From Geobacter sulfurreducens PCA (GTDB lineage Bacteria; Desulfobacterota; Desulfuromonadia; Geobacterales; Geobacteraceae), in NCBI RefSeq assembly GCF_000007985.2, contig NC_002939.5, positions 3,150,001 through 3,182,000 of the forward strand: DNA of 32,000 nucleotides. The letters are read 5' to 3'. Both the position numbers and the translations under genes were made by a program. Positions 10,103 through 29,930 of the stretch are shown here, one piece after another. Each line of letters opens with the position of its first letter. Position 1 is the first letter of the stretch. The notes under the pieces were generated by a model, which did not search any database, was not told the origin of the DNA, and saw nothing but the letters and a program-made list of their open reading frames with translations.

Positions 10103-10217
10103 CGTCTTTCCCTTTCCGGCAGAACGGAACTGAAACGGACATTCCCTCAAGTGTAGCAGAACATTGTCCGGATGCCGGGCCGGGGGAAATGTTCCCTCCG
10201 GCCGGTGGCGAAGTTTT

Positions 10218-12926: not shown

Positions 12927-13001
12927 TGCGTCATCTCCGTGGCTCGGTCGGCTCGCTTTCGACCGGCCAGACTGCCGGACAACCCTGCGGCGCCAGGCCT
13001 G

Positions 13002-16128: not shown

Positions 16129-18795
16129 CTACCAGGTTTGAACGCCGATGGACTTACGCAGAATCAGTATAGCATCCTGCAGGTCAATCTTCCCGTCGGG
16201 GCGAACTATGCCGTTGACCAGGGGGCCCACGTCGGCTGCGGCGTAGTCGTCGGCGGTCGGCGCCACGGCCCCTACCGCGATCCTGAGAACCCGCAGGACG
16301 TCTGCGATGGTTACCGTGCCATCGCTGTTCACATCACCTGTCGGCACGGGGGCAGACAGGCTCCGCGCCGTGACGTTGCCGGCAGCGTCGGTGGCGGTAA
16401 TCCGCAGGGTCGCCGGGTCATGGGGCGTACCGGCGAGATTGATGCTCCAGGCCCCATCGGAGGAGGCGAACAGGCCGAGAGTGCCGGACCGATCGCTTAC
16501 CATCACCGTGGCATCCCGGCCGGCGGTGCCGGCAAGGACGGCCGGCGGCGGCGAGGTCTGACCGGCGATGAGCAGCAACGGCGGAGTCCGGTCGACCACC
16601 AGGTTGCGGGTGGTGCTGGCAGAGGCACCGGTTGCGTCGGTAGCGGTCACGGTCACGGCATGGGCCCCTTCGAGCCCCGCCGGCACCGTAAGGCTGAAGG
16701 CGCTGCCGGTCAGGGTAACCGGCACGGCAGCCCCGTCCACGGTGGCAGAGAGGGTTACACCATCTTCCACGGCACCCGAGATGACGATGCTTTCGGCAAC
16801 GGTTGCCAGGTCTTCGGCCGGCGAGACGATTACCGCCTGGGGTGCGTCGGCATCGTAAAAGACCGTGCGTTTGAGGCGCGCCGTGGCTCCCGACGAGGCG
16901 GCAACGCCGATCTCGATGGTGTTCAGGCCAGGGGCGAGAGTCACCCGCCTGCTCCAGCCCGTATCGCTCACCGTGGCGACTACGCCGTTCACCGTCACGG
17001 TGACGCCGGCCGGGGCGGTGCCGGCAACCTCCACAACGGGCGTCCTCGTGCGGCTGCCATCGGAGGGCGCAACCACCGCCAGTTCGGGCGCAGCCGGATC
17101 AAAGGTAACGCTGCGGCCGTCGGTTACGCTGTTGCCGGCCTGGTCAGTGGCCGTGACCGTTAGCGTGGTGACGCCGTTGGCAAGGACCAGCGGCATACTG
17201 GCACTACCGTTCAGCAGCGTCACAGCCTTGCCGTTGACCGTAACGCCCTGGAGGTGAGGATCAACGGCGGCGATGGTCACGTTGTGGACCCTGACCCCGC
17301 TCCGGCTTCCATTGGCGAGGGTGGAGACCACCAACTGCGGCGCGCGGGTATCCACGGTCACCACCAGGCTTTCTGAGGCGCCACCCGTTGAGAGGGTTAT
17401 GAGGTTGGCGCCCTCGGCGAGGCCGCTCAGCACACTGCGCCAGGTGGAGGAAGTGGGATAGGTGACGGCGGCGGTTGCTCCCGTCGTCCCGTTGAGAATC
17501 GCAAGGGACACGCCGGCGGCGCGGGAACCGGTCAGGGTGACGCTGGTGGTGTTCAGCAGGGGCGGGACGGGGCCGATGGAGAAGAACGTATTGGTCACAG
17601 TCAGCACCACCGACCCGCCGACGGTGGCAATATTGCCAGCCGCGTCAACGGCCTGCACCGTAATACTGTTGAGACCGGGAGTAAGGGCGACAGTGGCGCT
17701 CCAGCCCGAGCCGCTCGTCACGGCCGGCTTGGCGACCCCGCCGTTTACCGACACCGTCACCGTGGCCCCGGCCTCTACGGACCCGCCCACGGCCAGCGAG
17801 GCGGTCAGGGTCGACACGGGTAGCGGATCAAGGGTGATCGCCGGCGGAGTCGTATCCACCGGCAGATAGCCTGCGCCGATGCCGTACAGCACCATGTCGC
17901 CGGCGCCGTTGGCCACCACGAGCCGACTGCCCGCGGCATCGAACAGGGCATCGGAGGGTGCGTTCAACAGGCCGGTGCCGGCGCCGTAGGAACCGATGAA
18001 CGCGAGGAACGCGCCGCTTCCTGCCGGGTCGATCACCTGGACGGTGCTCTGGAAGGAGTCGACCACGTACATTCTGAGCAGCGTGGGGGTTGCGCCGGCC
18101 GAATACTCGAAGGTGATGCCCTGGGGCAACGTGAGTTTGAGGGGGCCGGACCCGAAGGAACAAAGGGTCCGCTGAAAGATGCCGTTTGTGTCAAAAAACT
18201 GAATGCGTCCGTTCAGCGAGTCGACAACGGCCAACTGACCGGAAATCTTCTCGTAGGCAATGCCGGTCGGCATATTGAACTGGCCACTGCCAAAGCCGGC
18301 CGTTCCGAAACGGCTCAGGTAGTCACCCGTGGCAGTGAATACCTGGACGCAGTTACCCAGACTGTCTGTTACGTAAATCCTGCCTGCCGCATCCAGAACA
18401 ACACCGTTGGCCATCTTGAATTGTCCCGTGCCGGAACCCAGACGGCGCAACTCTTTCCCGGTCTGGTCCATGAGGGCCACAAAATCGCCCTGGCTCACCA
18501 CCAGGTTTCCCGTCGCGGTAAGTGCAACCCCCTGGGGCGCCTTGGCAGTGGGGATCAACCGGTCGAAACGGCCGGTGGAGGTGAAGCGCACGATACCGCC
18601 GCCCCGGGAATCGGTGACATACAGGTTGCCGGAAGAGTCTGTGGCGAGACGGACCGGAGACCGGAGACCGTCCGTCACTGACGGCAATGGTGTCACCTGC
18701 GGCGGGGTTGCCGCCAGGCCGCCCGCAATGCCGACCGCTTGGGCACCAACAATGACAACTACCGCCGCCAACAGCTTCCGGACCGTACCAACCAT
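16129..18795 (-). CDS. Secreted NHL-repeat beta-propeller / Ig-like domain array / dockerin-like C-terminal protein
   Basis: ORF track 16129..18798 starts at a GTG; an ATG follows at 18795, with GGGAGG 5-8 nt upstream. The signal peptide is MVGTVRKLLAAVVVIVGAQAVG. About six NHL-type blades follow (repeated P.GVA.D..G.LYV.DS.N..V..F). The middle holds repeated ~90-aa Ig-like units (..V.V.VNG..A....GW...V.L..G.N.I...A.D.AGN). The C-terminus is GDVNSDGTVTIADVLRVLR...RPDGKIDLQDAILILRK, which are dockerin/EF-hand-like duplicated loops. Confidence 0.9.
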   Translation of the reverse strand: MVGTVRKLLAAVVVIVGAQAVGIAGGLAATPPQVTPLPSVTDGLRSPVRLATDSSGNLYVTDSRGGGIVRFTSTGRFDRLIPTAKAPQGVALTATGNLVVSQGDFVALMDQTGKELRRLGSGTGQFKMANGVVLDAAGRIYVTDSLGNCVQVFTATGDYLSRFGTAGFGSGQFNMPTGIAYEKISGQLAVVDSLNGRIQFFDTNGIFQRTLCSFGSGPLKLTLPQGITFEYSAGATPTLLRMYVVDSFQSTVQVIDPAGSGAFLAFIGSYGAGTGLLNAPSDALFDAAGSRLVVANGAGDMVLYGIGAGYLPVDTTPPAITLDPLPVSTLTASLAVGGSVEAGATVTVSVNGGVAKPAVTSGSGWSATVALTPGLNSITVQAVDAAGNIATVGGSVVLTVTNTFFSIGPVPPLLNTTSVTLTGSRAAGVSLAILNGTTGATAAVTYPTSSTWRSVLSGLAEGANLITLSTGGASESLVVTVDTRAPQLVVSTLANGSRSGVRVHNVTIAAVDPHLQGVTVNGKAVTLLNGSASMPLVLANGVTTLTVTATDQAGNSVTDGRSVTFDPAAPELAVVAPSDGSRTRTPVVEVAGTAPAGVTVTVNGVVATVSDTGWSRRVTLAPGLNTIEIGVAASSGATARLKRTVFYDADAPQAVIVSPAEDLATVAESIVISGAVEDGVTLSATVDGAAVPVTLTGSAFSLTVPAGLEGAHAVTVTATDATGASASTTRNLVVDRTPPLLLIAGQTSPPPAVLAGTAGRDATVMVSDRSGTLGLFASSDGAWSINLAGTPHDPATLRITATDAAGNVTARSLSAPVPTGDVNSDGTVTIADVLRVLRIAVGAVAPTADDYAAADVGPLVNGIVRPDGKIDLQDAILILRKSIGVQTW

Positions 18796-18849
18796 CACCC
18801 GAGCCTCCCGGCGCCCCGCGTCTGCCGCTTCCCGCCGTCCAGCGGGCGC

Positions 18850-18895
18850 AGAAAAGCCGGGGCCACTTATCCTTCGGATAATTCGGCATCCCGGC
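18850..18895 (-). terminator. Intrinsic terminator (expression platform) of riboswitch unit A
   Basis: Minus-strand GCCGGGAUGCC (18895-18885, the 3' part of the aptamer) pairs with GGCCCCGGC (18864-18856), with a 2-nt bulge, and is followed by UUUUCUGCG. An inner hairpin UUAUCC-GAA-GGAUAA sits in the loop. Confidence 0.55.
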
Positions 18896-18960
18896 TGTCT
18901 CTAGGAGACCCTAGGCTTTCCGCCCCGCCCTCGCGGACGGTTTAGTCTTATCGTGTATCC
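18876..18960 (-). promoter_or_regulatory. GEMM-I (cyclic-dinucleotide) riboswitch aptamer, unit A, in the 5' leader of the NHL/cytochrome operon
   Basis: Minus-strand RNA: GGAUACACGAUAAGACUAAACCGUCCGCGAGGGCGGGGCGGAAAGCCUAGGGUCUCCUAGAGACAGCCGGGAUGCCGAAUUAUCC. It matches the remembered GEMM-I consensus ..AAACC-stem-GNRA-stem-GRCGCAAAGCC.CGGGUCU...GACAGCCGGGUUGCCGAA. Confidence 0.7.
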
Positions 18961-18993: not shown

Positions 18994-19009
18994 TGCAACA
19001 AACAAGCCA
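18994..19009 (-). promoter_or_regulatory. Candidate sigma54 (-24/-12) promoter between the two riboswitch units
   Basis: Minus strand TGGCTT-GTTTG-TTGCA versus the consensus TGGCAC-N5-TTGCA. The GG and GC are correctly spaced. The predicted start is about 20-30 nt upstream of aptamer A. Confidence 0.4.
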
Positions 19010-19027: not shown

Positions 19028-19080
19028 GAAAAAATAAAAAGCCGGGAGCCTCATATCATCAGATACTTCGGCATCCCGGC
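19028..19080 (-). terminator. Intrinsic terminator (expression platform) of riboswitch unit B
   Basis: Minus-strand GCCGGGAUGCC (19080-19070) pairs with GGCUCCCGGC (19050-19041), giving 10 bp with one bulged U, followed by UUUUUAUUUUUUC. Confidence 0.7.
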
Positions 19081-19145
19081 CATCTCCTTGAGACCCTGGG
19101 CTTTCCGCCCCACCCTCGCGGATGGTTTAGTCTTATCGGCTATCC
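19062..19145 (-). promoter_or_regulatory. GEMM-I (cyclic-dinucleotide) riboswitch aptamer, unit B
   Basis: Minus-strand RNA: GGAUAGCCGAUAAGACUAAACCAUCCGCGAGGGUGGGGCGGAAAGCCCAGGGUCUCAAGGAGAUGGCCGGGAUGCCGAAGUAUC. It is about 89 percent identical to unit A over the 72-nt core. The hairpin CCAUCC-GCGA-GGGUGG differs from CCGUCC-GCGA-GGGCGG in unit A by a compensatory A-U to G-C change. Confidence 0.7.
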
Positions 19146-19389: not shown

Positions 19390-20451
19390 CTACCTGTGCT
19401 CGTCGCAGGCACTGGTGAGGGCGGTGCAGTTCCCCTCCCCGTAGGAGGTCGGCGACGATGCCTTCCTGAAGTTCGTCATGACCTGCGCCTTCTTGCCGGT
19501 GGAATCGATATAGGCATAGGGCGCGGGGTCGGAGTTGTAGCCGATGAACCGGCCGTGGTTCAGGCCGTGCGGACTCACCGAATGGCACGCGACACAGGCC
19601 ACATTGTTCTCGTGGTCGCTTTCGCTGTGAACGTTGTTGTACCAGCCGCTGGAGCCGCCACTTCCCTTGAGGGGGTGACACTTGGCGCAGAACAGGGTGG
19701 TCTGCCAGTTGCCGGTGTTGTTACGCACGTCTCCCAAGGTCCAGAGCTTGCCGTCGGAGCGCGCGGGCCAGGTGGTGCCGGTAATCAGCATGGACTTACC
19801 GGTCGAGCCGGGGGTGTGACAGTCGCTGCACTTCATCACCTGGGTGCCGACGGCGGTCCAGGGTGCCTTCATCTGGTTTGCCCGCAGAGCCCGCGGCGCG
19901 GCGGAGCCGGTCTGGCTGTTGAGGGGCACCTGGACCGGGTGGGCCGACGCGTTGGCCGGGTTGAACTCCCGGGCCTTGTCGGTAAAGGGCTTGCCCGACG
20001 GGCCGACGATGGCGCTCACGCCGTTGGTGGCGGAGAACGCATAGGTGGAGTGACACTTATAGCACAGCTGGTACTCCTTGGTCGCAGGCTGCACGGCCGT
20101 GTACCCGGTCGGCGAGGTCCACGCCGCCGTAGCATTCGGCTGGACCCCGTTGTACTGGCTGAAGTTGGCGACGTAGTCGCCGTGCTTGTCCAGGTGGGAC
20201 TGGGCGCCGTGGCAATTGGAGCAGGCATACTGCTGGCCCGCCACACCGGCGGTGATGGTGTCCATTACATCCTGGTTCGTACTGTTGTGACAGGTCTGGC
20301 AGACGGTGGCCGCAAAGCCGCCGTGTTGCGTGATCAGGTTGTTCTTGTGACAGAAGGAGCAGGTCCCCTGCCCCACCGCGGCCACATGCCCCGCCATGGC
20401 CGGAACGGCCATGGCGAGCAGTGCTGCGAATGTCATGACTATGCGTTTCAT
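19390..20451 (-). CDS. Heptahaem c-type cytochrome
   Basis: ORF track 19390..20490. The ATG at 20451 is preceded by GGAGGA at about 6 nt and gives the signal peptide MKRIVMTFAALLAMAVPAMA. Seven CxxCH sites: CSFCH, CQTCH, CSNCH, CYKCH, CSDCH, CAKCH, CVACH. Confidence 0.9.
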   Translation of the reverse strand: MKRIVMTFAALLAMAVPAMAGHVAAVGQGTCSFCHKNNLITQHGGFAATVCQTCHNSTNQDVMDTITAGVAGQQYACSNCHGAQSHLDKHGDYVANFSQYNGVQPNATAAWTSPTGYTAVQPATKEYQLCYKCHSTYAFSATNGVSAIVGPSGKPFTDKAREFNPANASAHPVQVPLNSQTGSAAPRALRANQMKAPWTAVGTQVMKCSDCHTPGSTGKSMLITGTTWPARSDGKLWTLGDVRNNTGNWQTTLFCAKCHPLKGSGGSSGWYNNVHSESDHENNVACVACHSVSPHGLNHGRFIGYNSDPAPYAYIDSTGKKAQVMTNFRKASSPTSYGEGNCTALTSACDEHR

Positions 20452-20504
20452 AGGGCTCCTCCATTGATCGGTCAGTTGGATGTGGTTCACGTCTCGCCTC
20501 CCCG

Positions 20505-23159
20505 CTACTGCACCAGGAAGGCCCCCTCGGCAACATAGAGGCTGCTCGAGGTGGTGGTGACACGGAACTTCATCCAGCCGTAGCCGTTCATCCGCTGCGC
20601 GATGGAGGTGACGTCGATATCTTTCCAGCCGGCGCTGCTCGTGCTGTAGCTCACCGAGTAGTAGCTGTTCACCGATGTGCCGTTGGACTGGTACGGATAG
20701 ATGCGCAGCGTCCGCGACGAACTGATGGAGGAGACATACAGCCGCAGCACTACCTTGCTTGCGGTCAGGGCGTCGCGGTTCAGCTTCATGGCGATGACGT
20801 AGTTCTCGCCACTCTTGTACTGCAGCAGATACCGGTCTGCAAGGTTGCTGTCGCGGAACTTCGAGGTCAGGTCGTTGCTGTTGCTGTCAGAGGAGGTGAC
20901 GCTGCTCAGCCGCTGCAGGTACAGCACCTGGTCCGCAAACACCGAACTGCTGCCCGCCTGGCTCTGAACCGTCACCACCGCCGTGTCGCTGGCCGTGTCG
21001 CCGCTGTTGTCGGTCACGGTAAGGGTCACCGTGTAGGTGCCTGCCGTGGTGTAGGTTTTGGTGACGCTCACCCCGCTTCCCGTGGTGCCGTCGCCGAAGT
21101 TCCACACATACCCCACGATACTTCCGTCAGGATCGCTGGAGCCCGAACCGGAGAAGGTGATGGCCTGGCCGACGGTAACGGTCCGGTCAGCCCCCGCGTT
21201 GGCCGAAGGGCCCCGGTTGGCGCCGCCGTGGATCATGGTGTGGCAACTGCGGCAGTTCTGCTGGATTCCAGCCATGCCGTCGCTGATGGTCTTGACGTAC
21301 AGCTCATTGGTGCTCGTATGGCAGCCGTTGCAGTAGACCGGTGTGGCGGCCTTCTCATGGGCTGTCACCGCGTTGTCCGAATGGCACTGGCCGCAGTTGG
21401 GGGCGGGCAGTCCCACCATGTCGTGCTGCCCGGCGTGGTTGCCGAAGCCGCCGATGGCGCTGTGGCAGTCAGCACAATAGACGAGCGTGCCGCCCAGCCC
21501 CTTCTGCACCGCCGCCGTCACCGACGCGTTATCGCTGGCGTGGCAGGCCGCGCACTGAAAGCCCTTCACAGCGTGCAGCTCAACCAGGTTCGGAATATGA
21601 CAGGAGCTGCAGTCGCCGTACGGGACCAGCACCTTGCCGTCGTGGGCGCTCTGGTGGGTCACCTGGCCGTGGCAGTCCACGCAGGAGACCGCCTGGCCGC
21701 TCCGCCCCGCGGCAATGGCCTGCTGGACCGCCGTGCTGCTGCTGGAGTGGCAGGTGGCGCAGGTAGACGTGCGGGTCAGGTGCTCGTCGAGCACGCTCTT
21801 GGTGTGGCACTGGGCACAGGCCGGAGAGGCAAGCGCCTGATCGTGCTGGGCCACGTGGTTAACCGCCCCGTGGCAGCTGGCGCAGGAGACCGTGATCCCG
21901 GCGCGGCCGTCGCTTATCGTCTTCTGCACCGCGGCGTTGGTGCTGTTGTGGCAGGTGGCGCAGGTGGAAGAGCGGTTCGTGTGCTCGTACACCACGCCCT
22001 GGCCATGGCACGAGGCGCAATCGGCAGGGGTGGTCACCTTGTCGTGCTGCTGGACGTGGTTCACGTTCGCGTGGCAGTTGGAGCAGTAGACCGTGGTGCC
22101 CGCCTTGCCGGCGGCAATGGCCTGCTGGACCGCGGGAGCGGCGCTCGAGTGGCAGGTGGCGCAGGTTGAAGCCCGCGAAAGGTGCTCGTTCACCACCCCC
22201 AGGTTGTGGCACTGGGCACAGTCGGCATTGGCCATGGCCTTGTCGTGTTGCTGGATGTGGTTCACGGCGCCGTGACAGTTGGCGCAGGAAACCATGGTGC
22301 CGGTCCGGCCGAGGGTGATCGTCTGCTGCACCGTGGTGCTGGAACTGTTGTGGCAGGTGGCGCAGGTGGAGGTCCGGTTGGTGTGCTCCTGGACCGGCCC
22401 CTGATTGTGGCAGCCGGAGCAATCCGCCGGCGTGGAAACCTTGTCGTGCTGAAGCACGTGGTTCACCGTGCCGTGGCAGGTAACACAGTACACGGCGATG
22501 CCGGCCCGGCCGTCGGCGATGGCTTTCTGCACCGCGGGCTGGGTGCTGGCGTGACAGGTGGCGCAGGTGGAGGTCCGGTTCAGGTGTTCGAAGACGACCC
22601 CTTGGGCGTGGCACTGCACGCAGTCGGGAGAGGGGAATGCCCTGTCATGCTGGACAATGTGGTTCACCGCGCCGTGGCAGGTGATACAATTGACCATGAC
22701 GCCGGCCCGGCCGTCGGTGATGGCCTTCTGCACCGCGGGAGCCGTGCTGGAATGGCAGGTGGAGCAGGACGACGTTCTGCTCAGGTGCTCGGCCACGGGG
22801 GTCTGGGTGTGGCACTGGGCGCAATCGGCCGCGGTGGCAACCATGTTGTGGGCCGCAGCGTGGTCCACTTGGCCGTGGCAGACGATACAGTCGGTGATCA
22901 CCTCGATGGTGAATCCGCCCGATCCGTCGGGGATCGCCCGGTGGCACTGGAGGCAGGTGATGCCCTTGCTGCTGGCTACCGCATGGTGTTGCTGGGGAAT
23001 AGAGCCGTAGGTGCTCCCGGTGTGGCACGTCGTGCAGTCGGTTGCGGTAAGAGCCTGGGCATCCCGGACAATTCCCGGACCGGCCGTCAGCATGACGGCT
23101 ACCCCCCACAGGCACATCAGAATCTGCGGGAAAATGGTGATAATCCTCGACCTGTTCAA
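20505..23159 (-). CDS. 27-haem c-type cytochrome (nine tri-haem modules) with a PKD domain and a beta-rich C-terminal domain
   Basis: ORF track 20505..23225, where the longest form starts at a TTG. I prefer the TTG at 23159, which is preceded by AAGGAGGA at 9 nt and gives a signal-like N-terminus NRSRIITIFPQILMCLWGVAVMLTAGPGIVRDAQA. The alternative ATG at 23117 has no SD. There are 27 CxxCH motifs by hand count. The PKD signature is ITFSGSGSSDPDGSIVGYVWNFGDGTTG...YTVTLTVTDNSG. Confidence 0.9.
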   Translation of the reverse strand: MNRSRIITIFPQILMCLWGVAVMLTAGPGIVRDAQALTATDCTTCHTGSTYGSIPQQHHAVASSKGITCLQCHRAIPDGSGGFTIEVITDCIVCHGQVDHAAAHNMVATAADCAQCHTQTPVAEHLSRTSSCSTCHSSTAPAVQKAITDGRAGVMVNCITCHGAVNHIVQHDRAFPSPDCVQCHAQGVVFEHLNRTSTCATCHASTQPAVQKAIADGRAGIAVYCVTCHGTVNHVLQHDKVSTPADCSGCHNQGPVQEHTNRTSTCATCHNSSSTTVQQTITLGRTGTMVSCANCHGAVNHIQQHDKAMANADCAQCHNLGVVNEHLSRASTCATCHSSAAPAVQQAIAAGKAGTTVYCSNCHANVNHVQQHDKVTTPADCASCHGQGVVYEHTNRSSTCATCHNSTNAAVQKTISDGRAGITVSCASCHGAVNHVAQHDQALASPACAQCHTKSVLDEHLTRTSTCATCHSSSSTAVQQAIAAGRSGQAVSCVDCHGQVTHQSAHDGKVLVPYGDCSSCHIPNLVELHAVKGFQCAACHASDNASVTAAVQKGLGGTLVYCADCHSAIGGFGNHAGQHDMVGLPAPNCGQCHSDNAVTAHEKAATPVYCNGCHTSTNELYVKTISDGMAGIQQNCRSCHTMIHGGANRGPSANAGADRTVTVGQAITFSGSGSSDPDGSIVGYVWNFGDGTTGSGVSVTKTYTTAGTYTVTLTVTDNSGDTASDTAVVTVQSQAGSSSVFADQVLYLQRLSSVTSSDSNSNDLTSKFRDSNLADRYLLQYKSGENYVIAMKLNRDALTASKVVLRLYVSSISSSRTLRIYPYQSNGTSVNSYYSVSYSTSSAGWKDIDVTSIAQRMNGYGWMKFRVTTTSSSLYVAEGAFLVQ
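21222..23039 (-). repeat. Coding tandem array: nine ~201-bp (67-aa) tri-haem modules
   Basis: The module consensus is DC.QCH....V.EH..RTSTCATCHSS...AVQ.AI..GRAG..V.C..CHG.VNH..QHD. Modules 2-6 are exactly 67 aa; the first and last three are more diverged. The 201-bp periodicity also shows in shadow ORFs, for example those starting at 21892 and 22093. Confidence 0.85.
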
Positions 23160-23469
23160 AGCGCAAAGTCCTCCTTTCAATGATTCTTCACACTGGCGGG
23201 TTAACAATACAAATACACAATTCAATATACAGCGATGTCAAAAACACATCACAGGCGGAACAAATTAACGCATCTTACTTAAAAAAACAAGGGGAAAAAT
23301 ACGACAAATCAACACATTGCAGCGTTTACAGAGATACGGAAAGGCTCCTCAAAACACACATAAAATCAAACAAGTGCGGCATCTCAACAGTCATTTAACC
23401 GTCATGTCCGGCGAAATAGCCGGACAATGCAACGTAACTGCGCAACTGCCGGTACATGAGAGACCGTTA

Positions 23470-23485
23470 AGCAGTACCTGTGCCA
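23470..23485 (-). promoter_or_regulatory. Candidate sigma54 (-24/-12) promoter upstream of the 27-haem cytochrome gene
   Basis: Minus strand TGGCAC-AGGTA-CTGCT with correct GG/GC spacing. It would give a leader of roughly 300 nt, largely AT-rich. Confidence 0.4.
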
Positions 23486-23560: not shown

Positions 23561-23610
23561 CGCAAAGAAAACACAACGGCCCGGTCATCTTCGCGATAAG
23601 ACCGGGCCGT
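23561..23610 (-). terminator. Rho-independent terminator downstream of the radical SAM gene
   Basis: Perfect 11-bp stem ACGGCCCGGTC (23576-23586) / GACCGGGCCGT (23600-23610) with a 13-nt loop. The minus strand continues UGUGUUUUCUUUGCG. Confidence 0.75.
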
Positions 23611-23646: not shown

Positions 23647-25158
23647 TCAGGGGATCGGCGCCACCGCGTGGGGATGGGCTGCGCCCGTGCGCTCGCCGAC
23701 CGCGCGCAGCAGCGCCTTTACCTCGGCCGGCATCTCCTTTCCCTCCTTGAGCATGGCCCGCATCTGGCCGGCCAGGTAGGAATGATTGATGAGGAGATCC
23801 AGTACCGAGAGCATGAATTCCTGCTTCCATGCCGATAGCTGGTGCAGATTCTGGAATTTGTGCATGAAAAACTGCTGGGACGCCTTGCCGAGTTGGCGCT
23901 CCAGCTCTTCCAGGGTCATGTGCTTCGGCTTGATGACCGGCTCCACCAGGTTGTACTTGCGGTAGTCCTTGGTGGCCACGTACTCCTCCAGTTGGGGATA
24001 GAGCTCGGCGTAGGGCCAGGGCGCTATGGCCAGGAAAAAGGCCATGTCAGGATTGTAGTGCTTGGCCAGCTCAATGGTCTGGGCAATGGATTCCGGCGTA
24101 TCGTCGGGCATGCCGAGCACGAAGGAGGTTTCCGAGACGATGTCGGCGTTGTTGATCAGGTCGATAGCCTGCTTGGACTGCTCCACCTGGGTGTCCTTCT
24201 TGAAAAGGTCCAGGGTCTCCTGGGTGCCGGCCTCCACCCCCACGTAGATATGCTCGACGCCCCCTTCCCGGTACCTGTCCATAATGTCCGCATCACGCAG
24301 GATGTCGTCCACCCTCGTTTCCATGAGGAGCTTGACCGGAACCTGCCGCTCGATCATCAGGTCCAGGATGCGGACCCATCGCTGCCGGTCAAAGGTGGGA
24401 ATCTCGTCCGAAAGCATGGCCACCTGGACGCCGTGCACGGTGTGGAGCATCTCAAGCTCCGCCACGAAGTTCTCGGCGGAGCGGGCCCGCCACGACTGTG
24501 ACCAGAAGAGCTGCTGGGAACAAAAGGAGCACTGCTGCTTGCACCCCCGGGACGAGGAGACGATGGCGAGCCGGGCGTCGTTCTTTGCCCGGTAGGTGTA
24601 AATGGGCCATTCCACCAGATCCCAGGCCATGGGGAGCCCGTCAAGGTCGTGAATGTACGGCGCCCGCGGCGTTACCACCACGCCGCCGTCCCGCCGGAAG
24701 GCGAGCCCTTCCACCTTGTACGGATCGTCTCCGGCATTGAGGCAGGTACAGAGCCGGGGCAGCGTTACTTCACCCTCGCCCCGGACGATGAAGTCGACGG
24801 CGTCGTGGTCATGGGCGAGGATCTCGTCGTAGCAGAAGGTGGCGTGCACATTGCCGAGCACGGTCACGATGCCGGGATCGATCTCCTTGGCGAAGCGCAG
24901 CAGCCTGATCGCGTCGACGATGGACGCGGTGAAGGCGGTGGTGGCCACCACGTCGGGGCGGAACGCCTCGATCCGCCTCCTGATGTCGGGCCACGTGTGC
25001 CACAGGGACATGGCATCATAGTAATCGACCTCATACCCCGCTGCCCTGAGAGACCCGGCGATGTAGACAAATCCGACATTAAGCCAGGTGCCGGCTGATT
25101 CCACGACCCCCGAGTGATAGGGGGGCGTGATGAGCGCCACACGCTTTATTTTTTTCAT
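23647..25158 (-). CDS. B12-binding (class B) radical SAM enzyme
   Basis: ORF track 23647..25161 starts at a TTG; the ATG at 25158 is preceded by GAGGAG at 6 nt. The N-terminal cobalamin-binding-like Rossmann part reads KRVALITPPY...GYEVDYYDA...PDVVATTAFTAS...FIVRGEGE. The radical SAM cluster motif is SSRGCKQQCSFC (CxxxCxxC). Confidence 0.9.
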   Translation of the reverse strand: MKKIKRVALITPPYHSGVVESAGTWLNVGFVYIAGSLRAAGYEVDYYDAMSLWHTWPDIRRRIEAFRPDVVATTAFTASIVDAIRLLRFAKEIDPGIVTVLGNVHATFCYDEILAHDHDAVDFIVRGEGEVTLPRLCTCLNAGDDPYKVEGLAFRRDGGVVVTPRAPYIHDLDGLPMAWDLVEWPIYTYRAKNDARLAIVSSSRGCKQQCSFCSQQLFWSQSWRARSAENFVAELEMLHTVHGVQVAMLSDEIPTFDRQRWVRILDLMIERQVPVKLLMETRVDDILRDADIMDRYREGGVEHIYVGVEAGTQETLDLFKKDTQVEQSKQAIDLINNADIVSETSFVLGMPDDTPESIAQTIELAKHYNPDMAFFLAIAPWPYAELYPQLEEYVATKDYRKYNLVEPVIKPKHMTLEELERQLGKASQQFFMHKFQNLHQLSAWKQEFMLSVLDLLINHSYLAGQMRAMLKEGKEMPAEVKALLRAVGERTGAAHPHAVAPIP

Positions 25159-25417
25159 CAATAGCTCCTCTATTCCATAACAGGCGGAAACCGCAACGGG
25201 TTGCCTAAAGCAAAAAATGGACCGCGTTTAATAAAAATTCAAAAATCCCACATTCCTCACCAGAACACAACGATTTTCTCCAAAAGGAACTGCAGTGCGG
25301 TTCCGGTGGAGTCACGGCAAAAAAACGTCATTTAGCCGGGTCGTCGAAAGACTGGGAGGCTGTTCGCGGATGAAGCCGCCGGATGCGTCACTGACCTGCC
25401 GTACACGCGGCCATGCC

Positions 25418-25771
25418 TCAATGGAATACCATGCCGTACACGCACAGATAACCGGCGCCGAACGCGGCAAACAGGACCAGGTGCTTGATGATGAGCATCC
25501 GGCGGCGGACCTTCTCCGCATCGGGTCCGTACCAGTTCTCCACATAGGTGAAGGTCCGGCCGGCGCCCGTGGCCATGATCACCACCATGGCAACGACGCT
25601 GGCCCAGAAGAAGATATGCTCCAGCCGGTTGAGAATCGCAACGATCTCCGCGGCCTGCCCGCCGTGCATCCGGTGGATCAGGACAATGGCGGCAATGGCG
25701 GCAAGCCAGATGCCGGCCGCGAAGTCATGGACAAAGCCGTTGAGAATCACTGCTGCATTTTTCACGTTCAT
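25418..25771 (-). CDS. Small His-rich integral membrane protein (about 4 TM), function unknown
   Basis: 117 aa with an ATG preceded by AAGAGG at 6 nt, 36 nt downstream of ccsA copy 2. Hydrophobic segments are AAGIWLAAIAAIVLI, IFFWASVVAMVVIMATGA and HLVLFAAFGAGYLCVYGMVF. His residues occur at FVHDF, IHRMHGG, LEHIF, IKHLV and at the C-terminal H. Confidence 0.7.
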   Translation of the reverse strand: MNVKNAAVILNGFVHDFAAGIWLAAIAAIVLIHRMHGGQAAEIVAILNRLEHIFFWASVVAMVVIMATGAGRTFTYVENWYGPDAEKVRRRMLIIKHLVLFAAFGAGYLCVYGMVFH

Positions 25772-25807
25772 GCAAGGCCTCTTTCTGAAGGCAGGGTCGC
25801 CGGATCT

Positions 25808-26635
25808 CTACTTGAAATACTCCGAATGGATCGACGAACCGATGAGCGGCGTAAAGAGGAGCGAAATCACCGAGAGAACGAAGCAGATCAGGTAGAGGTA
25901 GGCCGCCCGCTCACCGTTCCAGCCGAAGAAACGGCGCAGGTGGAGGTAAATGCCGAAGGCGATCCATGTCATGAGGGACCAGGTCTCCACCGGATCCCAG
26001 CCCCAGAAACGCCCCCACGACTGGTATGCCCAGATGCTTCCGGCCACCATGGCGATACCCCAGAAGGTGAAGCTGAAGCCGGCAAAACGAAATGACAGGA
26101 TATCGAGGATCTCCAGTTCGGGGAGCCGCTGGAGCCAGGAGATCCCGGTCCGCTTCCGGAGAAGGTAGAAGAGGGAGAACGCCAGGGCCACCAGCAGGGT
26201 GAAGAGCGATATCTTGTAGAAGATCACGTGCAGGACGAGCCAGACGCTCCTCAGCGTGGGGGGGAGCATCTTGGCCTGGGGCTCGATGAACAGGCCCACG
26301 GCGATCATGAGGAAGGTGACCGGGAAAACCAGGATGCTCGCCGCCTTGATGCGGGGGAAAAAGCGTGAGGATGCCATGAACAGGGCCAGCACGGCCCAGG
26401 CGTGGGAGGAGAGGACCTCGAACCGGCCGATGTAGGGGCCGTGGCCGACGATCTTCCACCACCAGAGGATGCCGATCCCGTGCACCAGGAGCCCCCCGAG
26501 CACCAGGGCCTCGCTGACGGCAACGGCGCGCTCCTTGCGGAACATGAGGCCCGATACGTTGAAGATGGTGGCGATGACGTAGACAACCACCGCTACCCAG
26601 TGAATTATGGTGATGTGTGCAAAGGATGAATCCAT
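25808..26635 (-). CDS. ccsA: Cytochrome c biogenesis protein CcsA/ResC, copy 2
   Basis: 275 aa, collinear with 5692..6525 and more than half identical by eye. It has WGRFWGWDPVETW, GHGPY and YLHLRRFF. The ATG is preceded by AAGGAG. Confidence 0.9.
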   Translation of the reverse strand: MDSSFAHITIIHWVAVVVYVIATIFNVSGLMFRKERAVAVSEALVLGGLLVHGIGILWWWKIVGHGPYIGRFEVLSSHAWAVLALFMASSRFFPRIKAASILVFPVTFLMIAVGLFIEPQAKMLPPTLRSVWLVLHVIFYKISLFTLLVALAFSLFYLLRKRTGISWLQRLPELEILDILSFRFAGFSFTFWGIAMVAGSIWAYQSWGRFWGWDPVETWSLMTWIAFGIYLHLRRFFGWNGERAAYLYLICFVLSVISLLFTPLIGSSIHSEYFK

Positions 26636-26682
26636 GAGTACTCCTTACCCCTGTGTGAACGTGTGGCCGCGCCGTACGCGGC

Positions 26683-28026
26683 TCATCCCCGATGCCCCCC
26701 GCCCGGTACCCGGTCCCCGCCGGCTGCCTCGTCCGCCGGCAGGCACTCGCGGCAGATGCGCTCGAACTCCTCCCGGTAGAGCTCCGCGAACCGGGGGGCA
26801 CGCCAGGCGAGCCGGCATCCCTCCCCCTCCTTCACGGCCAGGAGCTCGCGGGGCGGGGACAGGTAACTCATCCCCCCGCCGAGGGCAATGACCAGAAAGG
26901 CGAAGAATATTCCTTCCATGCCCGTGGTATCGATAAAAATGATGCCGCCCCACCACTCCGACTTTACGAGAGTGACGGGATGGCCGCCAAGGGTCCCGGA
27001 CGCGCCGGCGGTGAGGGAGAGTTCCTCCACCACCTTCCCCGCCTTCACCAGTTGCAGCAGGAGCAGGGGGTTGTCACCCACGGGCGCCCGCCGGTCACTG
27101 TCGGGATAGTATTTGGCCCTGATCGTCGACGAGGTCCAGGGGACCGTAAAGTCCTTGAACGGGGCGTCGTCGCCGGTGAAGCGGCTGTCGACCATGAAGA
27201 TATCGCCCTGCCAGGCCCCGTTCGCATCCTGAAATCCCACGTAGAAGGCCCTGCCGAACGACTTGCCCTGGAAGACCCTGATCCCGCTGTGCCGGATCGT
27301 CTTGTTGACATGCATGGAGTAGGGGCTGTTCCGGCCGTCCGGGCCGATGAACGTGAAATCGGTCGTGAGCTGCTTGAGATTGCCGTTGGGCCAGAACTCG
27401 GGGACCACACGGTCGAGACGCACCGCCTCGGGAAGCGCGAATGTCCCCGCCAGCAGCCCCATATCCTGCCGTGTCCACGGATCCCCCACTCCGTGGACCT
27501 CCCCTTCCAGGAGATCGACCGACCCCCGCTTTTCATAGAGGAGGATGACAAGCGATGCAGCCACTGCCGCGACAATGCCCAGATGGAGCAGGACATTGCC
27601 CCAGTAGCCCCAGGGATTCTTTACGAGGCGGATCGAATCGCCATCGGAGCGGACCCGGAGATAGCCCAGCCTGCCGGCAGCGGCGGCAACCGTTTCCGGA
27701 GCGCAGGCAAGGACCAGGCTTTTGCCGCCGACCCCCCCTTCCCGGGTCAGCCGGAGCGCGCGCGTGAACTGCTCCCAGGTGGAGAAGAGCAGCGAAACCA
27801 TGAACAGCGCCAGGAGGACCGCAAACCAGGGCGACGTGTACACGTGGTCCAGTGCCAGCGTGCGCGAAAGGGTTGCGAGAAAGGGGTGGTCAAGCGCCCA
27901 CCGGTCCATGCCCGCCGGAGAGAGCAGGAACCGCTGGGGGAAGAGATAGCCGACAACCACCGCTCCCAGCACCAGGATGATCAGGGTCAGAACCGTTGAG
28001 CGGGCAAGAAAGAAACGTTTGATCAT
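26683..28026 (-). CDS. resB: Cytochrome c biogenesis protein ResB/CcsB, copy 2
   Basis: ORF track 26683..28185. The conserved ResB N-terminus MIKRFFLARSTVLTLIILVLGAVVVGYLFPQ aligns with copy 1 (MDIRRFFLSRTTVITLIAL...), so the start is at the ATG at 28026, or possibly 28041. The 53 Arg-rich codons upstream look non-coding. NPWGYWGNVLLHLGIVAAV is conserved. Confidence 0.85.
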   Translation of the reverse strand: MIKRFFLARSTVLTLIILVLGAVVVGYLFPQRFLLSPAGMDRWALDHPFLATLSRTLALDHVYTSPWFAVLLALFMVSLLFSTWEQFTRALRLTREGGVGGKSLVLACAPETVAAAAGRLGYLRVRSDGDSIRLVKNPWGYWGNVLLHLGIVAAVAASLVILLYEKRGSVDLLEGEVHGVGDPWTRQDMGLLAGTFALPEAVRLDRVVPEFWPNGNLKQLTTDFTFIGPDGRNSPYSMHVNKTIRHSGIRVFQGKSFGRAFYVGFQDANGAWQGDIFMVDSRFTGDDAPFKDFTVPWTSSTIRAKYYPDSDRRAPVGDNPLLLLQLVKAGKVVEELSLTAGASGTLGGHPVTLVKSEWWGGIIFIDTTGMEGIFFAFLVIALGGGMSYLSPPRELLAVKEGEGCRLAWRAPRFAELYREEFERICRECLPADEAAGGDRVPGGGHRG

Positions 28027-28117
28027 ATCCTCAACCTGCATCGGGCGGCACGGGCCGCCAACGGACCACGCACGGAAGAATCCGGCGCGGAGGCACAGTA
28101 CCCTCCGCCAGGAGCTC

Positions 28118-28309
28118 CTACCCCGCGCCCTCCCGCTTCGCCTTCTCCAGCAGGGCCGCGACCGATGCCCCCTCCTGACCGGCATCGATGATCATGTCGG
28201 CCACCAGGGCGGCACAGGTGCACATGGCCTCGCCGGTACCGAGCATCCTGTCGGATATCCGCTCCCCGGACCCGTCAGCGGCCCGCATTCGTTCGAGTAA
28301 TCTTATCAT
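28118..28309 (-). CDS. Hypothetical small protein (63 codons; uncertain)
   Basis: It fills the gap between the luxE-like stop and the resB start and overlaps the luxE-like 3' end by 35 nt. The distal two thirds have GC-rich third positions. It contains EAMCTCAALVADMIIDAGQEGASVAALLEK. The SD is weak and the start is uncertain (internal ATGs at 28288 and 28246). Confidence 0.3.
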   Translation of the reverse strand: MIRLLERMRAADGSGERISDRMLGTGEAMCTCAALVADMIIDAGQEGASVAALLEKAKREGAG

Positions 28310-29498
28310 GGAGCTTACCCACCTTTTTGAGACTTCGTTTCAACAGGAACTCGATAATGGGGGTCATGAAGCGGGGGCCGTGGGCCTGCTTGATGGCCTC
28401 GGTTTCCAGCTCCCAGGAGGTTTTCTTCCAGCGGCCGATGATCTCGAAGCCGCCGGGGGTCATGAATCCCACGTTGTCGGTCTGGACGGCCACCACCATC
28501 CCCCGGTTGACCAGGTCGTAGTGGCGCAGCAGCCCCGGATCGCCGTCGGGTACCGGTTCGAGCGTCTCCACGTCCACCACCCGGGTCCGGGTCCAGGGTG
28601 GAACGACCTTGGCCCTGGCAAGGGGACGTCCGGCCAGGTGATCCTTCAGGACATTATCGAAAAAGTTGGTGCTCACCTCGCCCATGCCGAGGACGTTCAC
28701 GCAGTGGTGCTCGTCCACCTGGAGGATCTCCGCTGATTTGAGATAGAACTCCTCCCGGGAGCACTCCCCGAACTGGGCCAGATAGCCGCCGCCGTCGCAG
28801 AGGCGGCTGCCCGGGGGAAGCCGGAACCGGACCCCGTCCCGCTCACAGGCATTCATGAAATAGACGAAACCGGCGGTCGACCCGATGATGACGATCGGCT
28901 CCCCGGTCCGTTCCGCCTCCATGAGCGCGGACAGGAGAAAGGCCAGGTCCAGGCCCCGGCGGTCGATGAGGTAGCGGCTGTCGGGGGAGCCGAACATCCG
29001 CCGCACCACATCCAGCCCCACCGCCATCCCCATGCCCGGCGCGATGTCGGGGGAGGGAACCATGAGGAACATGCGCATCCGGTCCACGTCGGGGAACACG
29101 TACTCCCTGGTGAGGAGGCCGTTGGCCGCATTGATGAGGGTCACCCCCGCCGGGTCCCGCAGTATCTTCCCCTTGTTCAGGGGGTCGGTGGTGCCGCTGG
29201 TGAAGTAGCGCTGCTCCGCCCGCTCCGCCGGAAACGAGGTCATGACGAACTTCTTGAAGGCCATGGACGGGACCGCCGGGATATCCTCCCACCGCTCCAC
29301 CTTTCCGGGCGACCTCCCCTTGTCGAGACAGAAGCGGCGGTAGGGCTCCACCGTATTGAACTGGAGCTCGAAGCAGCGCAGCGCCAGGTCGTTGAATCCG
29401 TCCTCGTCACGGTTTTCCAGCCCCTTTTCCACGTAGGAGAGGATGTCCCGGTCCAGTTCCCGGACAAAGTCGGATTCGAGCGAGTAGTCTTTCAACAA
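28275..29498 (-). CDS. LuxE/PaaK-like adenylate-forming enzyme (acyl-protein synthetase family)
   Basis: 407 aa with a TTG start preceded by AAGGAG at 5 nt. It has the adenylation P-loop-like YFTSGTTDPLNKGK. From memory, the N-terminal region (FNDLALRCFELQFNTVEPYRRFC) and the overall length resemble LuxE-family proteins. Confidence 0.75.
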   Translation of the reverse strand: MLKDYSLESDFVRELDRDILSYVEKGLENRDEDGFNDLALRCFELQFNTVEPYRRFCLDKGRSPGKVERWEDIPAVPSMAFKKFVMTSFPAERAEQRYFTSGTTDPLNKGKILRDPAGVTLINAANGLLTREYVFPDVDRMRMFLMVPSPDIAPGMGMAVGLDVVRRMFGSPDSRYLIDRRGLDLAFLLSALMEAERTGEPIVIIGSTAGFVYFMNACERDGVRFRLPPGSRLCDGGGYLAQFGECSREEFYLKSAEILQVDEHHCVNVLGMGEVSTNFFDNVLKDHLAGRPLARAKVVPPWTRTRVVDVETLEPVPDGDPGLLRHYDLVNRGMVVAVQTDNVGFMTPGGFEIIGRWKKTSWELETEAIKQAHGPRFMTPIIEFLLKRSLKKVGKLHDKITRTNAGR

Positions 29499-29558: not shown

Positions 29559-29587
29559 ATCATAAATCGTTAGTCAAAATTTCCCAA
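29559..29587 (-). promoter_or_regulatory. Candidate sigma70 promoter for the luxE-like/resB/ccsA/rSAM operon
   Basis: Minus strand: -35 TTGGGA (29587-29582), 17-nt spacer, -10 TATGAT (29564-29559), about 55-60 nt upstream of the TTG start. Confidence 0.35.
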
Positions 29588-29930
29588 CACTTTTATCTTC
29601 CATCGCAGCGCTGCCGGCAGGCCAACGACCGGGACAGACAGCTCCGCCGCTGATACTGCCACGTGATTTCGCGTACAGGCCGGCGAATAGCCTCAGGTGA
29701 TCGAACGTGCCAAAAATCGACCCGAATAACCGGATTACTGCCGATGCGAGCCACAAAGTCACCGCTGTTTCACCGCAAATGAGGCCCATTATGCAAAAGC
29801 ACCAATTAAAAGCAAAGAATATACCAGACTCAATGCAGAGCCTTGCCCGCACTCCGTTCCCGGCCCCGAGCCCGCGGCAGGCCGCCCGCATTCGCTGCGG
29901 CGGCCGCGGCACCTTCAACCTGCCCACGAT

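Follow-up and report, generated by a model that had tools for sequence, protein, structure and literature searches.

The 32,000-nucleotide stretch of the Geobacter sulfurreducens PCA genome analyzed here (contig NC_002939.5, positions 3,150,001 to 3,182,000; hereafter the window) encodes on its minus strand a group of six genes, GSU2893 to GSU2888, which lies in an island of multihaem cytochrome genes and whose putative role in cytochrome c maturation is the subject of this analysis. All six open reading frames (ORFs) were found at the coordinates given in an earlier note on this DNA, and Pfam and NCBIfam searches bore out the families named there, with LuxE (PF04443), ResB (PF05140), CcsA (PF01578) and the pair B12-binding (PF02310) plus Radical_SAM (PF04055) all matched. 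From 5' to 3' the group comprises an adenylate-forming enzyme of the LuxE/PaaK type (28275-29498, 407 amino acids (aa), GSU2893 type, PF04443), a conserved small ORF for a 63-aa peptide with a Cys motif, here called the Cys arm (28118-28309, GSU2892 type), a ResB/CcsB-like and a CcsA/ResC-like subunit of a System II synthase (26683-28026, GSU2891 type, PF05140, and 25808-26635, GSU2890 type, PF01578; together CcsBA), a 117-aa membrane protein (Cop117; 25418-25771, GSU2889 type), three-helical and remotely CopD-like to judge by its AlphaFold2 (AF2) model and conserved residues, and a BchE-like class B, or cobalamin-dependent, radical S-adenosylmethionine (rSAM) enzyme (23647-25161, GSU2888, PF02310 and PF04055). 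By exact-sequence match (G. sulfurreducens PCA/KN400), GSU2888 is identical to AAR36280.1 and GSU2893 to AAR36285.2. On the same strand follow the genes for a 27-haem c7-polymer cytochrome with a PKD domain (20505-23225, GSU2887 type) and for a 7-haem cytochrome (19390-20490, GSU2886.1 type), the latter a member of a multihaem family termed MHC8 below.

The gene list itself is not new, having been in print since 2009: Table S5 of Aklujkar et al. 2009 (PMC2700814) lists GSU2893, GSU2892, GSU2891, GSU2890, GSU2889 and GSU2888 under "cytochrome c biogenesis gene clusters", with GSU2887 (27 haems) and GSU2886.1 (7 haems) in the rows after GSU2888. The same study describes four ResB/ResC pairs in the genome, each beside multihaem cytochrome genes, and proposes that every pair serves the cytochromes nearby; the acyl-protein synthetase and the radical SAM protein are given no role (PMC2700814). 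Literature searches for a function of the gene combination, or of GSU2884-GSU2893, returned that table and mentions in expression and proteome studies, among them the detection of the GSU2891 protein in proteomes, the description of GSU2887 as a lipoprotein cytochrome in proteomic papers and references to GSU2885 in papers on cGAMP signalling in Geobacter. They turned up no paper assigning a function, in line with the earlier statement that none was known for this combination. What is added here is the recurrence of the combination across phyla, the fusions among its parts, the Cys-arm motif, MHC8 as the partner and a division into core and add-on.

For the comparison across genomes, an alignment of LuxE-like homologues was scanned over one genome per GTDB species, yielding 179 confirmed stretches, 80 of which were fetched as loci with 10-kb flanks. 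ORFs were called naively in each locus, compared with the window proteins by BLAST and clustered all against all, antisense ORFs being discarded by eye. The lineages, taken from record titles, span at least six phyla and include Desulfobacterota (Geobacterales, Desulfobulbia, Syntrophales and Thermodesulfobacteria-type), Nitrospirota, Bacillota (Thermincola), Actinomycetota (Coriobacteriia), Pseudomonadota (Aromatoleum, Dechloromonas, Motiliproteus) and Myxococcota (Anaeromyxobacter); one locus (L029) carries the label of an archaeal metagenome-assembled genome (MAG). Among the loci of at least 18 kb, CcsA was present within 10 kb in 34/41 and a ResB-like protein in 30/41, the BchE-like rSAM enzyme and the 117-aa protein in 26/41 each, an ORF with at least four CxxCH motifs in 31/41 and MHC8 in 18/41. 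Since genomes hold few CcsA genes, chance placement of one within 10 kb is estimated at about 2%. The parts are also fused to one another: in four Bacillota loci the BchE-like rSAM enzyme (residues 6-483) and the LuxE-like enzyme (506-849) form one protein of about 940-1050 aa, and in two further types of fusion the Cys motif is joined either to the LuxE-like enzyme or to a cytochrome. Recurrence across phyla, together with these fusions, places the gene combination far beyond chance. Co-occurrence in the loci and fusion thus sustain the earlier proposal of a functional association of the accessory genes with the second ResB/CcsA pair and the cytochromes; judged by gene context, the parts are shown to be functionally linked with each other and with cytochrome c maturation, and the operon is very probably an accessory module of that process. 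That its genes share no function and are neighbours by history in a rearranging cytochrome island is extremely unlikely. Gene order does differ between G. sulfurreducens and G. metallireducens/G. hydrogenophilus, and a gap of about 256 nt with a possible internal promoter precedes the rSAM gene, but at least six phyla share the combination, and its parts are joined by fusions of three independent kinds.

Seven further loci were fetched via homologues of the rSAM enzyme. In this small sample, ResB/CcsA genes lie beside the rSAM gene in 5/7 loci, multihaem cytochromes in 5/7 and a LuxE-like gene in 1/7, while 6/7 encode, at or near the rSAM gene, an unannotated small protein (about 113-126 aa) that was checked for homology to the 117-aa protein in three of them (L082, L083 and L084). 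Because most of these loci are without a LuxE-like gene, the rSAM enzyme, the membrane protein and CcsBA look like the core of the module, and the distribution suggests that the LuxE-like enzyme and the Cys arm are an add-on that accompanies MHC8-type cytochromes in a subset of lineages. The six-gene set on which the earlier note focused does recur in other genomes, as just one variant. In a G. sulfurreducens-like genome (L082; AP017912.1, 3082130-3103641), the 117-aa protein (77% identity) and the rSAM enzyme (95%) are kept and sit between cytochrome genes, a different cytochrome pair lies upstream, and the LuxE-like, Cys peptide, ResB2, CcsA2, 27-haem and 7-haem genes are missing from the locus, a gene content that shows strain-level turnover of the island.

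The giant cytochromes, with 27 haems or with CxxxxCH sites, had been put forward as the partners of the module. Motif counts agree with the description on which this was based: the ORF directly downstream (20505-23225) holds 27 CxxCH motifs, with nine Cytochrome_C7 stretches in addition to the PKD domain, and the cytochromes encoded at 7970-16118 in the same island carry three to five CxxxxCH motifs each. The gene-neighbourhood check went against the proposal, since homologues of the 27-haem protein were found in only 3 of the 80 loci, those of the closest Geobacter (L001-L003), and CxxxxCH motifs were rare in the other loci; tracking of either cytochrome type by the module was rejected on this survey. 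By the same comparison the conserved partner is the family of the 7-haem cytochrome, whose gene begins 14 nt after the 27-haem gene. This family, MHC8, emerged from de novo clustering as a multihaem family with 7 to 19 CxxCH motifs and a Paired_CXXCH domain, present in 29 loci, and all 37 of its members from these loci match the 7-haem protein of the window, at no more than 49% identity (a Syntrophales MAG). Its core consists of seven invariant canonical CxxCH motifs and the signatures EY-x2-C-x-K-CH, S-x-H-P-V, C-x-D-CH and P-H-G. Sequence and profile comparison with the PDB gave no real homologue, the matches being weak and generic ones in haem packing, to OmcE and NrfA. MHC8 is the only cytochrome of the operon in the simplest loci; the gene order is Cop117, LuxE-like, rSAM, MHC8, ResB-like, FGE-like, TPR and CcsA in Aromatoleum, and MHC8, LuxE-like, ResB, CcsA, Cop117 and rSAM in a Bacillota locus (L047). 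Of the earlier idea of a specialised maturation system, the families and the link among the genes stand, and the giant cytochromes give way as partner to the 7-haem MHC8 type.

Other genes accompany the module in some lineages. A membrane carboxyl methyltransferase of the ICMT/PEMT type is encoded between CcsA and the LuxE-like enzyme in three Desulfobulbia-type loci (L017:9447-9923, L020:3731-4309 and L023:7798-8313). Two loci without a LuxE-like gene (L084:7323-9808 and L086:5102-7620) encode a NirJ/AhbD-like rSAM enzyme of about 350 aa and a flavin adenine dinucleotide (FAD) amine-oxidase-like protein beside the BchE-like enzyme; the pair was identified with NCBIfam in L084, where the FAD protein belongs to the PRK07208 family, and by Pfam domains in L086. 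In proteobacterial loci (L041, L048, L053, L057-L060, L062, L064, L067, L069 and L073), periplasmic FGE-sulfatase-like proteins, often in two to four copies, are encoded between the gene for an 11-haem MHC8 protein and that for CcsA, usually accompanied by a short ResB-like and a TPR protein. Other loci repeatedly contain NHL beta-propeller proteins.

The rSAM enzyme, whose start is likely the ATG at 25158, combines a B12-binding with a radical SAM domain and has the motif CKQQCSFC at residue 207. Its best NCBIfam model is BchE (TIGR02026), with a score of 407.9 bits, below the cut-off of 481.35, and an alignment of residues 7-457 with positions 1-455 of 497, hence over almost the whole model. 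The next model, HpnR, scores 154 bits, and the RiPP (ribosomally synthesized and post-translationally modified peptide) models ApyD (130 bits) and rSAM_ocin_1 (109 bits) match as well, as do models of B12-dependent rSAM enzymes acting on lipids. Homologues, with Geobacteraceae, Nitrospirae and Verrucomicrobia among them, are at least 79% identical within the best 120 of 3393, a degree of conservation that suits an invariant small-molecule substrate. No bch genes were found nearby that would provide a bacteriochlorophyll context; the neighbours are cytochrome and cytochrome-maturation genes and the host is G. sulfurreducens. Homologues of GSU2888 in non-phototrophs bear such names as [quoted passage not shown], "Hopanoid C-3 methylase" or "cobalamin-dependent protein", and the cyclase name is also attached to some LuxE-like homologues; these database names look like similarity-based transfers, not tested functions. 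A second B12-dependent rSAM enzyme, of another subfamily (TIGR04013-like and not BchE-like), is encoded in several Geobacterales and Nitrospirota loci.

The reading that we prefer, with a probability of roughly 0.45, is that the module handles or modifies haem in the cytoplasm before its export by the dedicated CcsBA, as a branch of System II. BchE acts on a propionate methyl ester, Mg-protoporphyrin IX monomethyl ester. Haem is proposed as the substrate because the nearest characterised relative of the rSAM enzyme, BchE, works on a tetrapyrrole side chain, because the conservation of the rSAM enzyme fits an invariant small molecule, because the module travels with a haem exporter/lyase, and because two loci add the NirJ/AhbD-like rSAM enzyme with the FAD amine-oxidase-like protein and three add the ICMT-type carboxyl methyltransferase.

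The LuxE-like enzyme matches PF04443 with 63.8 bits (cut-off 24.9), and a profile search of the PDB returned LuxE (7xc6_E, E 1e-21) as the only solved relative found by sequence. Its AF2 model (pLDDT 80) matches the PaaK-type ligases PaaK1 and BT_0428 in Foldseek with a TM-score of about 0.56, and the P-loop TSGTT and the motif CDGGG are found at residues 100 and 234, so that on its predicted structure the protein has a genuine adenylate-forming fold, its P-loop being intact. It falls short of the LuxE equivalog NF052244 (63.5 bits against a cut-off of 550), and neither the window nor the fetched loci contain luxC, luxD or luxAB. The exact protein is recorded in the database as a G. sulfurreducens acyl-protein synthetase, and homologues are about 53-78% identical in lineages comparable to those of the rSAM enzyme. 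Many Geobacterales and Nitrospirota loci and some from Desulfobulbia (L004-L016, L018, L026 and others; e.g. L006:7266-9986) encode a second LuxE paralogue that lacks both the P-loop and CDGGG and is therefore probably inactive in adenylation. Residues Cys 57, 218 and 266 are invariant across all LuxE-like subgroups, this paralogue included, a pattern that might reflect a metal or cluster site, perhaps one that the Cys arm completes. In some loci an extra 85-aa membrane protein is encoded together with the second LuxE and the second rSAM enzyme, all upstream of the active LuxE-like gene.

The LuxE relationship also lends itself to an interpretation in terms of lipid chemistry, in which the LuxE-like enzyme would activate a fatty acid and S-acylate the Cys arm while the rSAM enzyme would methylate a lipid in the manner of HpnR/HpnP, the module serving to anchor or package cytochromes at the membrane or cell surface. 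Besides LuxE as the sole solved relative, the second rank of HpnR and the matches to lipid B12-rSAM models, the naming of GSU2887 as a lipoprotein cytochrome in proteomic papers and the occurrence of GT2 and YfhO-like membrane proteins in some loci would fit. We nevertheless regard it as distinctly unlikely, because it leaves the tight linkage to a haem exporter/lyase pair and the BchE-like score unexplained, because the arm, where fused to a cytochrome, already adjoins a transmembrane anchor, and because no other lipid-synthesis genes recur among the neighbour families.

The C-terminal tail of the LuxE-like protein in the window is free of Cys, and a CxC peptide is encoded directly downstream; relatives bear the motif on their own tail. 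This peptide, which the earlier note had offered as a possible 63-codon ORF, is the product of a real conserved gene: homologous small ORFs lie 3' of the LuxE-like gene in Geobacterales, Nitrospirota and Desulfobulbia, the copy in the window overlapping the LuxE-like stop by 35 nt, and residues I18, D20, G24, C30 and C32 are invariant (core I-x-D-x3-G-x5-C-x-C). It has no match in Pfam or NCBIfam. Across the 80 loci, a Cys motif was detected with a regular expression, written post hoc after the data had been seen, in 66, compared with 0.8% of other ORF tails; it forms the tail of the LuxE-like protein in 42, a small downstream ORF in 20 and an N-terminal fusion to a cytochrome in 4. LuxE-like proteins without a separate small gene have a similar Cys motif at their end, with an acidic amphipathic stretch behind it, the motif taking the form PPVCPCDELSEEML in Aromatoleum, ASCPIAVEEMVA in Actinomycetota and SCPQVVDEILV in Geotalea and Anaeromyxobacter. 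In Thermincola and other Bacillota, the tails carry tandem copies of PCSTVADGM(M/L)K, with 2-8 regular-expression matches per tail (about 10 copies by eye in L032); in the Thermincola group the repeat unit spans about 14 aa, G-x-P-C-S-T-V-A-D-G-M-(M/L)-K-x, and follows a His/Gly/Pro-rich linker. Such tails of this group belong to LuxE-like proteins and rSAM-LuxE fusions (L032:1-1848, L034:2345-5491 and L045:8498-11395), with 4-8 regular-expression matches each; L034 and L045 adjoin multihaem cytochromes, and in L040, a related fusion locus, the multihaem cytochrome holds 34 haem motifs. The MHC8 cytochrome of four Desulfobulbia loci has the motif as its N-terminus, with a basic stretch and the signal anchor coming after it, and in two loci (L022 and L019) no alternative start codon is found between the motif and the cytochrome signal anchor. 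An exhaustive phmmer search with the 63-aa peptide gave four short relatives and no new fusion architectures; its top matches, of 1358 and 2912 aa, contained no individually significant stretch and were rejected, the one inspected being a spurious repetitive protein. In LuxE the acyl group moves from acyl-AMP onto a Cys that lies ten residues before the C-terminus of the enzyme itself, and by analogy the Cys arm looks like this acyl-accepting device, detached or multiplied. Cys-Pro, the classical haem-regulatory motif, is present in many of the Cys-motif variants.

A conserved small peptide gene beside an rSAM enzyme and an ATP-dependent enzyme would also be expected of a RiPP-like pathway. 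Its substrate would be the Cys-motif peptide, tail or cytochrome N-terminus, on which the rSAM enzyme would carry out methylation or cross-linking and the LuxE-like enzyme would activate a carboxylate; the modified peptide would then assist the partner cytochrome's maturation as a chaperone, cofactor or signal. The tandem motif copies fused to the enzyme recall multi-core precursors and self-modifying enzymes, the rSAM enzyme matches ApyD and rSAM_ocin_1 with the scores given above, and one rSAM-seeded locus has a PqqD/SPASM system close by. Such a pathway appears rather unlikely, however, given that the BchE score is three times that of any RiPP model, that rSAM identity stays at 79% or more across the best 120 of 3393 homologues while the motif varies (CTC, CPC, SCP, PCS), that the LuxE-like enzyme and the peptide are both missing from most rSAM-seeded loci, and that the conserved neighbour families include no recurring RRE/PqqD, protease or exporter.

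The haem exporter/lyase invoked in the haem-centred reading is the ResB/CcsA pair within the operon. ResB matches PF05140 (E 3e-25), its start at 28026 fitting an alignment with the other ResB copy, and CcsA, encoded 47 nt away in the adjacent gene, matches PF01578 (E 9e-36) and has the haem-handling WWD motif WGRFWGWD at residue 207, with His on both sides. Against the TIGR03144 equivalog CcsA scores 152.2 bits, under the cut-off of 187.6, so that it is best taken as a divergent paralogue though a member of the Pfam family. This CcsA2 is 58% identical to the CcsA encoded at 5692-6525, and the two ResB copies are 42% identical; the identity of the CcsA copies marks the pairs at 5692-7832 and 25808-28026 as recent paralogues within one island. 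The pair at 5692-7832 had been described as housekeeping-looking, which is not borne out by this identity or by the finding that all four pairs of the genome lie beside multihaem cytochromes (PMC2700814), and on their sequences neither pair is callable as housekeeping. A single clade uniting the module-linked CcsA proteins with CcsA2 was considered and rejected, their identity to CcsA2 being 29-59% (76% only in G. hydrogenophilus).

The 117-aa protein, previously taken to have about four transmembrane segments, has three long helices according to both its AF2 model (pLDDT 88) and hydropathy. Only two of its six His residues, His15 and His97, are invariant, both in predicted transmembrane helices, and the full invariant set is H15, D16, G69, R72, H97 and G107. 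A fold search of the PDB with the model retrieved generic helical bundles only (best E 0.55). In family searches it does not reach the CopD cut-offs, scoring 18.6 bits with PF05425 (E 0.0025, cut-off 32.1) and 26.5 bits with NF033808 (E 4e-6, cut-off 195), over only part of the CopD model. CopD being its sole family resemblance, and His/Asp/His residues being invariant, the protein might together with the Cys peptide handle copper or another metal, the two enzymes building or inserting a non-haem centre; CxC and CP motifs are able to bind metals, and FGE-sulfatase-like periplasmic proteins, FGE being a copper enzyme, recur in betaproteobacterial loci. Metal delivery of this kind is very unlikely, since the CopD matches lie far under the cut-offs, the B12-dependent rSAM enzyme and the adenylating enzyme are left without a role, and the FGE-like genes are confined to one lineage.

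In the haem-centred reading the parts could be arranged as follows. The two soluble enzymes would act on haem in the cytoplasm, prior to export. The LuxE-like enzyme would adenylate a carboxylate, most plausibly a haem propionate, and hand the acyl group as a thioester to the thiol of the Cys arm, in the way that LuxE loads its own C-terminal Cys; the separate 63-aa protein, the tail of the enzyme or the cytoplasmic N-terminus of a cytochrome precursor may play the part of the arm. The BchE-like enzyme would then alter a side chain of the tethered tetrapyrrole, as BchE acts on an esterified C13 propionate, and the three-helix protein, with its two invariant His, would pass the product to the dedicated CcsBA for export and attachment to the CxxCH sites of the partner cytochrome. 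The fully specified version of this scheme, in which a haem thioester on the Cys carrier yields a new derivative, for example with a beta-oxidised, cyclised or methylated propionate, that the dedicated CcsBA exports and attaches to a specific family of multihaem cytochromes, is speculative and should be regarded as doubtful; it would bring a new haem cofactor and the logic of a carrier protein into cytochrome c biogenesis.

Several points weigh against the haem-centred reading. The proposal of haem as substrate draws on homology to BchE, below the family cut-off, and on gene context; known substrates of LuxE are fatty acids, a small Cys peptide with an rSAM and an ATP-dependent enzyme is also a RiPP-like signature, and the sole remote relative of the 117-aa protein is the copper protein CopD. 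The core of MHC8 contains only canonical CxxCH motifs, and so offers no unusual attachment site that would explain a dedicated lyase, and the module-linked CcsA proteins, at 29-59% identity to CcsA2, do not constitute one orthologous clade. The solved structures of the Geobacter cytochromes OmcS, OmcE and OmcZ reportedly show ordinary haem c. Finally, the co-occurrence counts are conditional on the LuxE-like seed and on naive ORF calls, and many of the contigs are truncated MAG fragments.

The organization of the genes bears on how the module may be expressed. From the LuxE-like gene to the 117-aa gene the intergenic gaps are -35, 91, 47 and 36 nt, a spacing that supports co-transcription of this part, and about 256 nt separate the 117-aa gene from the rSAM gene; a single transcript for the whole unit, as proposed earlier, is plausible from this arrangement. 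The strong terminator placed at 23561-23610 by the earlier note is real: an intrinsic-terminator-like hairpin with a T-run (23564-23610, minus strand) begins 37 nt past the rSAM stop and folds into an 11-bp GC stem (-32.5 kcal/mol, z -2.2). The proposed promoter fares less well, since a candidate sigma-70-like site, TTGGGA-17-TATGAT with 9/12 matches, does exist at 29559-29587 (minus strand), but such sites are no commoner than in shuffled sequence (4 observed against 2.3 +/- 1.3). About 313 nt upstream of the LuxE-like start, a candidate sigma-54-type promoter, TGGTATATTCTTTGCT (29811-29826, minus strand), has no mismatch to the degenerate consensus TGGYAYN5TTGCW, motifs of this type numbering 5 in the window with 2.7 +/- 1.7 expected and hence not above chance. 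Another, TGGCACAGGTACTGCT (23470-23485, minus strand), lies upstream of the 27-haem gene and is the sole site in the window with one mismatch to TGGCACN5TTGCW, about 1.3 being expected by chance. The gap before the rSAM gene contains the GG-N10-GC motif CGGTCCATTTTTTGCT (25209-25224, minus strand), tentatively an internal sigma-54-type promoter, which has three mismatches to TGGCACN5TTGCW and is kept in three related Geobacter loci (L001-L003). Because window-wide counts are not above chance, all of these sigma-54-type sites are tentative leads based on position. A GG-N10-GC motif is found in each minus-strand intergenic region before the LuxE-like, rSAM, 27-haem and NHL genes, the last at 18994-19009, and sigma-54-dependent response regulators are encoded close to the rSAM gene in L082 and L084. 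An Rfam search of the studied region gave no match; in particular, the 256-nt gap that precedes the gene for the B12 enzyme contained no cobalamin riboswitch. Further downstream, an NHL-repeat gene (16129-18798) and cytochromes of the OmcA/OmcH/OmcG type are preceded by a tandem pair of c-di-GMP-I/GEMM-I riboswitch aptamers on the minus strand (18882-18956 and 19067-19141), which score 48.8 and 44.6 bits and so exceed the gathering threshold.

Multihaem cytochromes drive extracellular electron transfer, metal cycling and bioelectrochemical systems, and their maturation is not known to require more than the haem lyase system. A set of cytochrome-linked enzymes conserved across phyla would represent an unrecognised step in cytochrome c biogenesis, which may be a new modification of haem or a mechanism in which haem is carried covalently, and would account for thousands of "BchE" annotations in non-phototrophs; it may also bear on the poor heterologous expression of giant cytochromes. 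G. sulfurreducens is a genetically tractable model, so that the question is directly testable.

Among the closest known systems is that of Wolinella succinogenes, which reportedly uses dedicated lyases, NrfI for CxxCK and CcsA1 for the CX15CH site of MccA. In both cases an extra CcsA-type synthase is encoded beside the cytochrome that it presumably serves; the partner here has only canonical CxxCH motifs, and the lyase is accompanied by a B12-dependent rSAM enzyme, an adenylating enzyme, a Cys arm and a small His-bearing membrane protein, none of which is known to belong to the Wolinella systems. With BchE, the rSAM enzyme shares the order of a B12-binding and then a radical SAM domain, a near-full alignment to the model and a best-family score of 408 bits, but it remains below the equivalog cut-off of 481 and occurs in a non-phototrophic host in the context of cytochrome c maturation. 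The resemblance to LuxE lies in the family, PF04443, and in a Cys motif on or directly after the protein that may parallel the C-terminal Cys of LuxE; luxC, luxD and luxAB are absent here, and the motif is a separate 63-aa protein, or elsewhere tandem or fused to a cytochrome. The PqqA/PqqE and mycofactocin systems consist of a small precursor and an rSAM enzyme; here, too, a small conserved peptide accompanies an rSAM enzyme, together with an ATP-dependent enzyme, and the tandem motif copies fused to the enzyme in other lineages are reminiscent of borosins, which carry their substrate on their own C-terminus. Unlike in these RiPP and cofactor systems, the rSAM enzyme here is class B and BchE-like, not of the SPASM type, no RRE/PqqD, protease or exporter recurs, and an exported cytochrome can have the motif as its cytoplasmic N-terminus. 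The chemistry proposed for the LuxE-like enzyme has a precedent in coenzyme F430 synthesis, where CfbE catalyzes an ATP-dependent carbocyclic ring closure from a tetrapyrrole propionate. CfbE is a Mur-ligase homologue with no sequence relation to the LuxE-like enzyme, a member of the ANL/LuxE group, and its ATP activation of a tetrapyrrole propionate serves as a precedent by analogy only.

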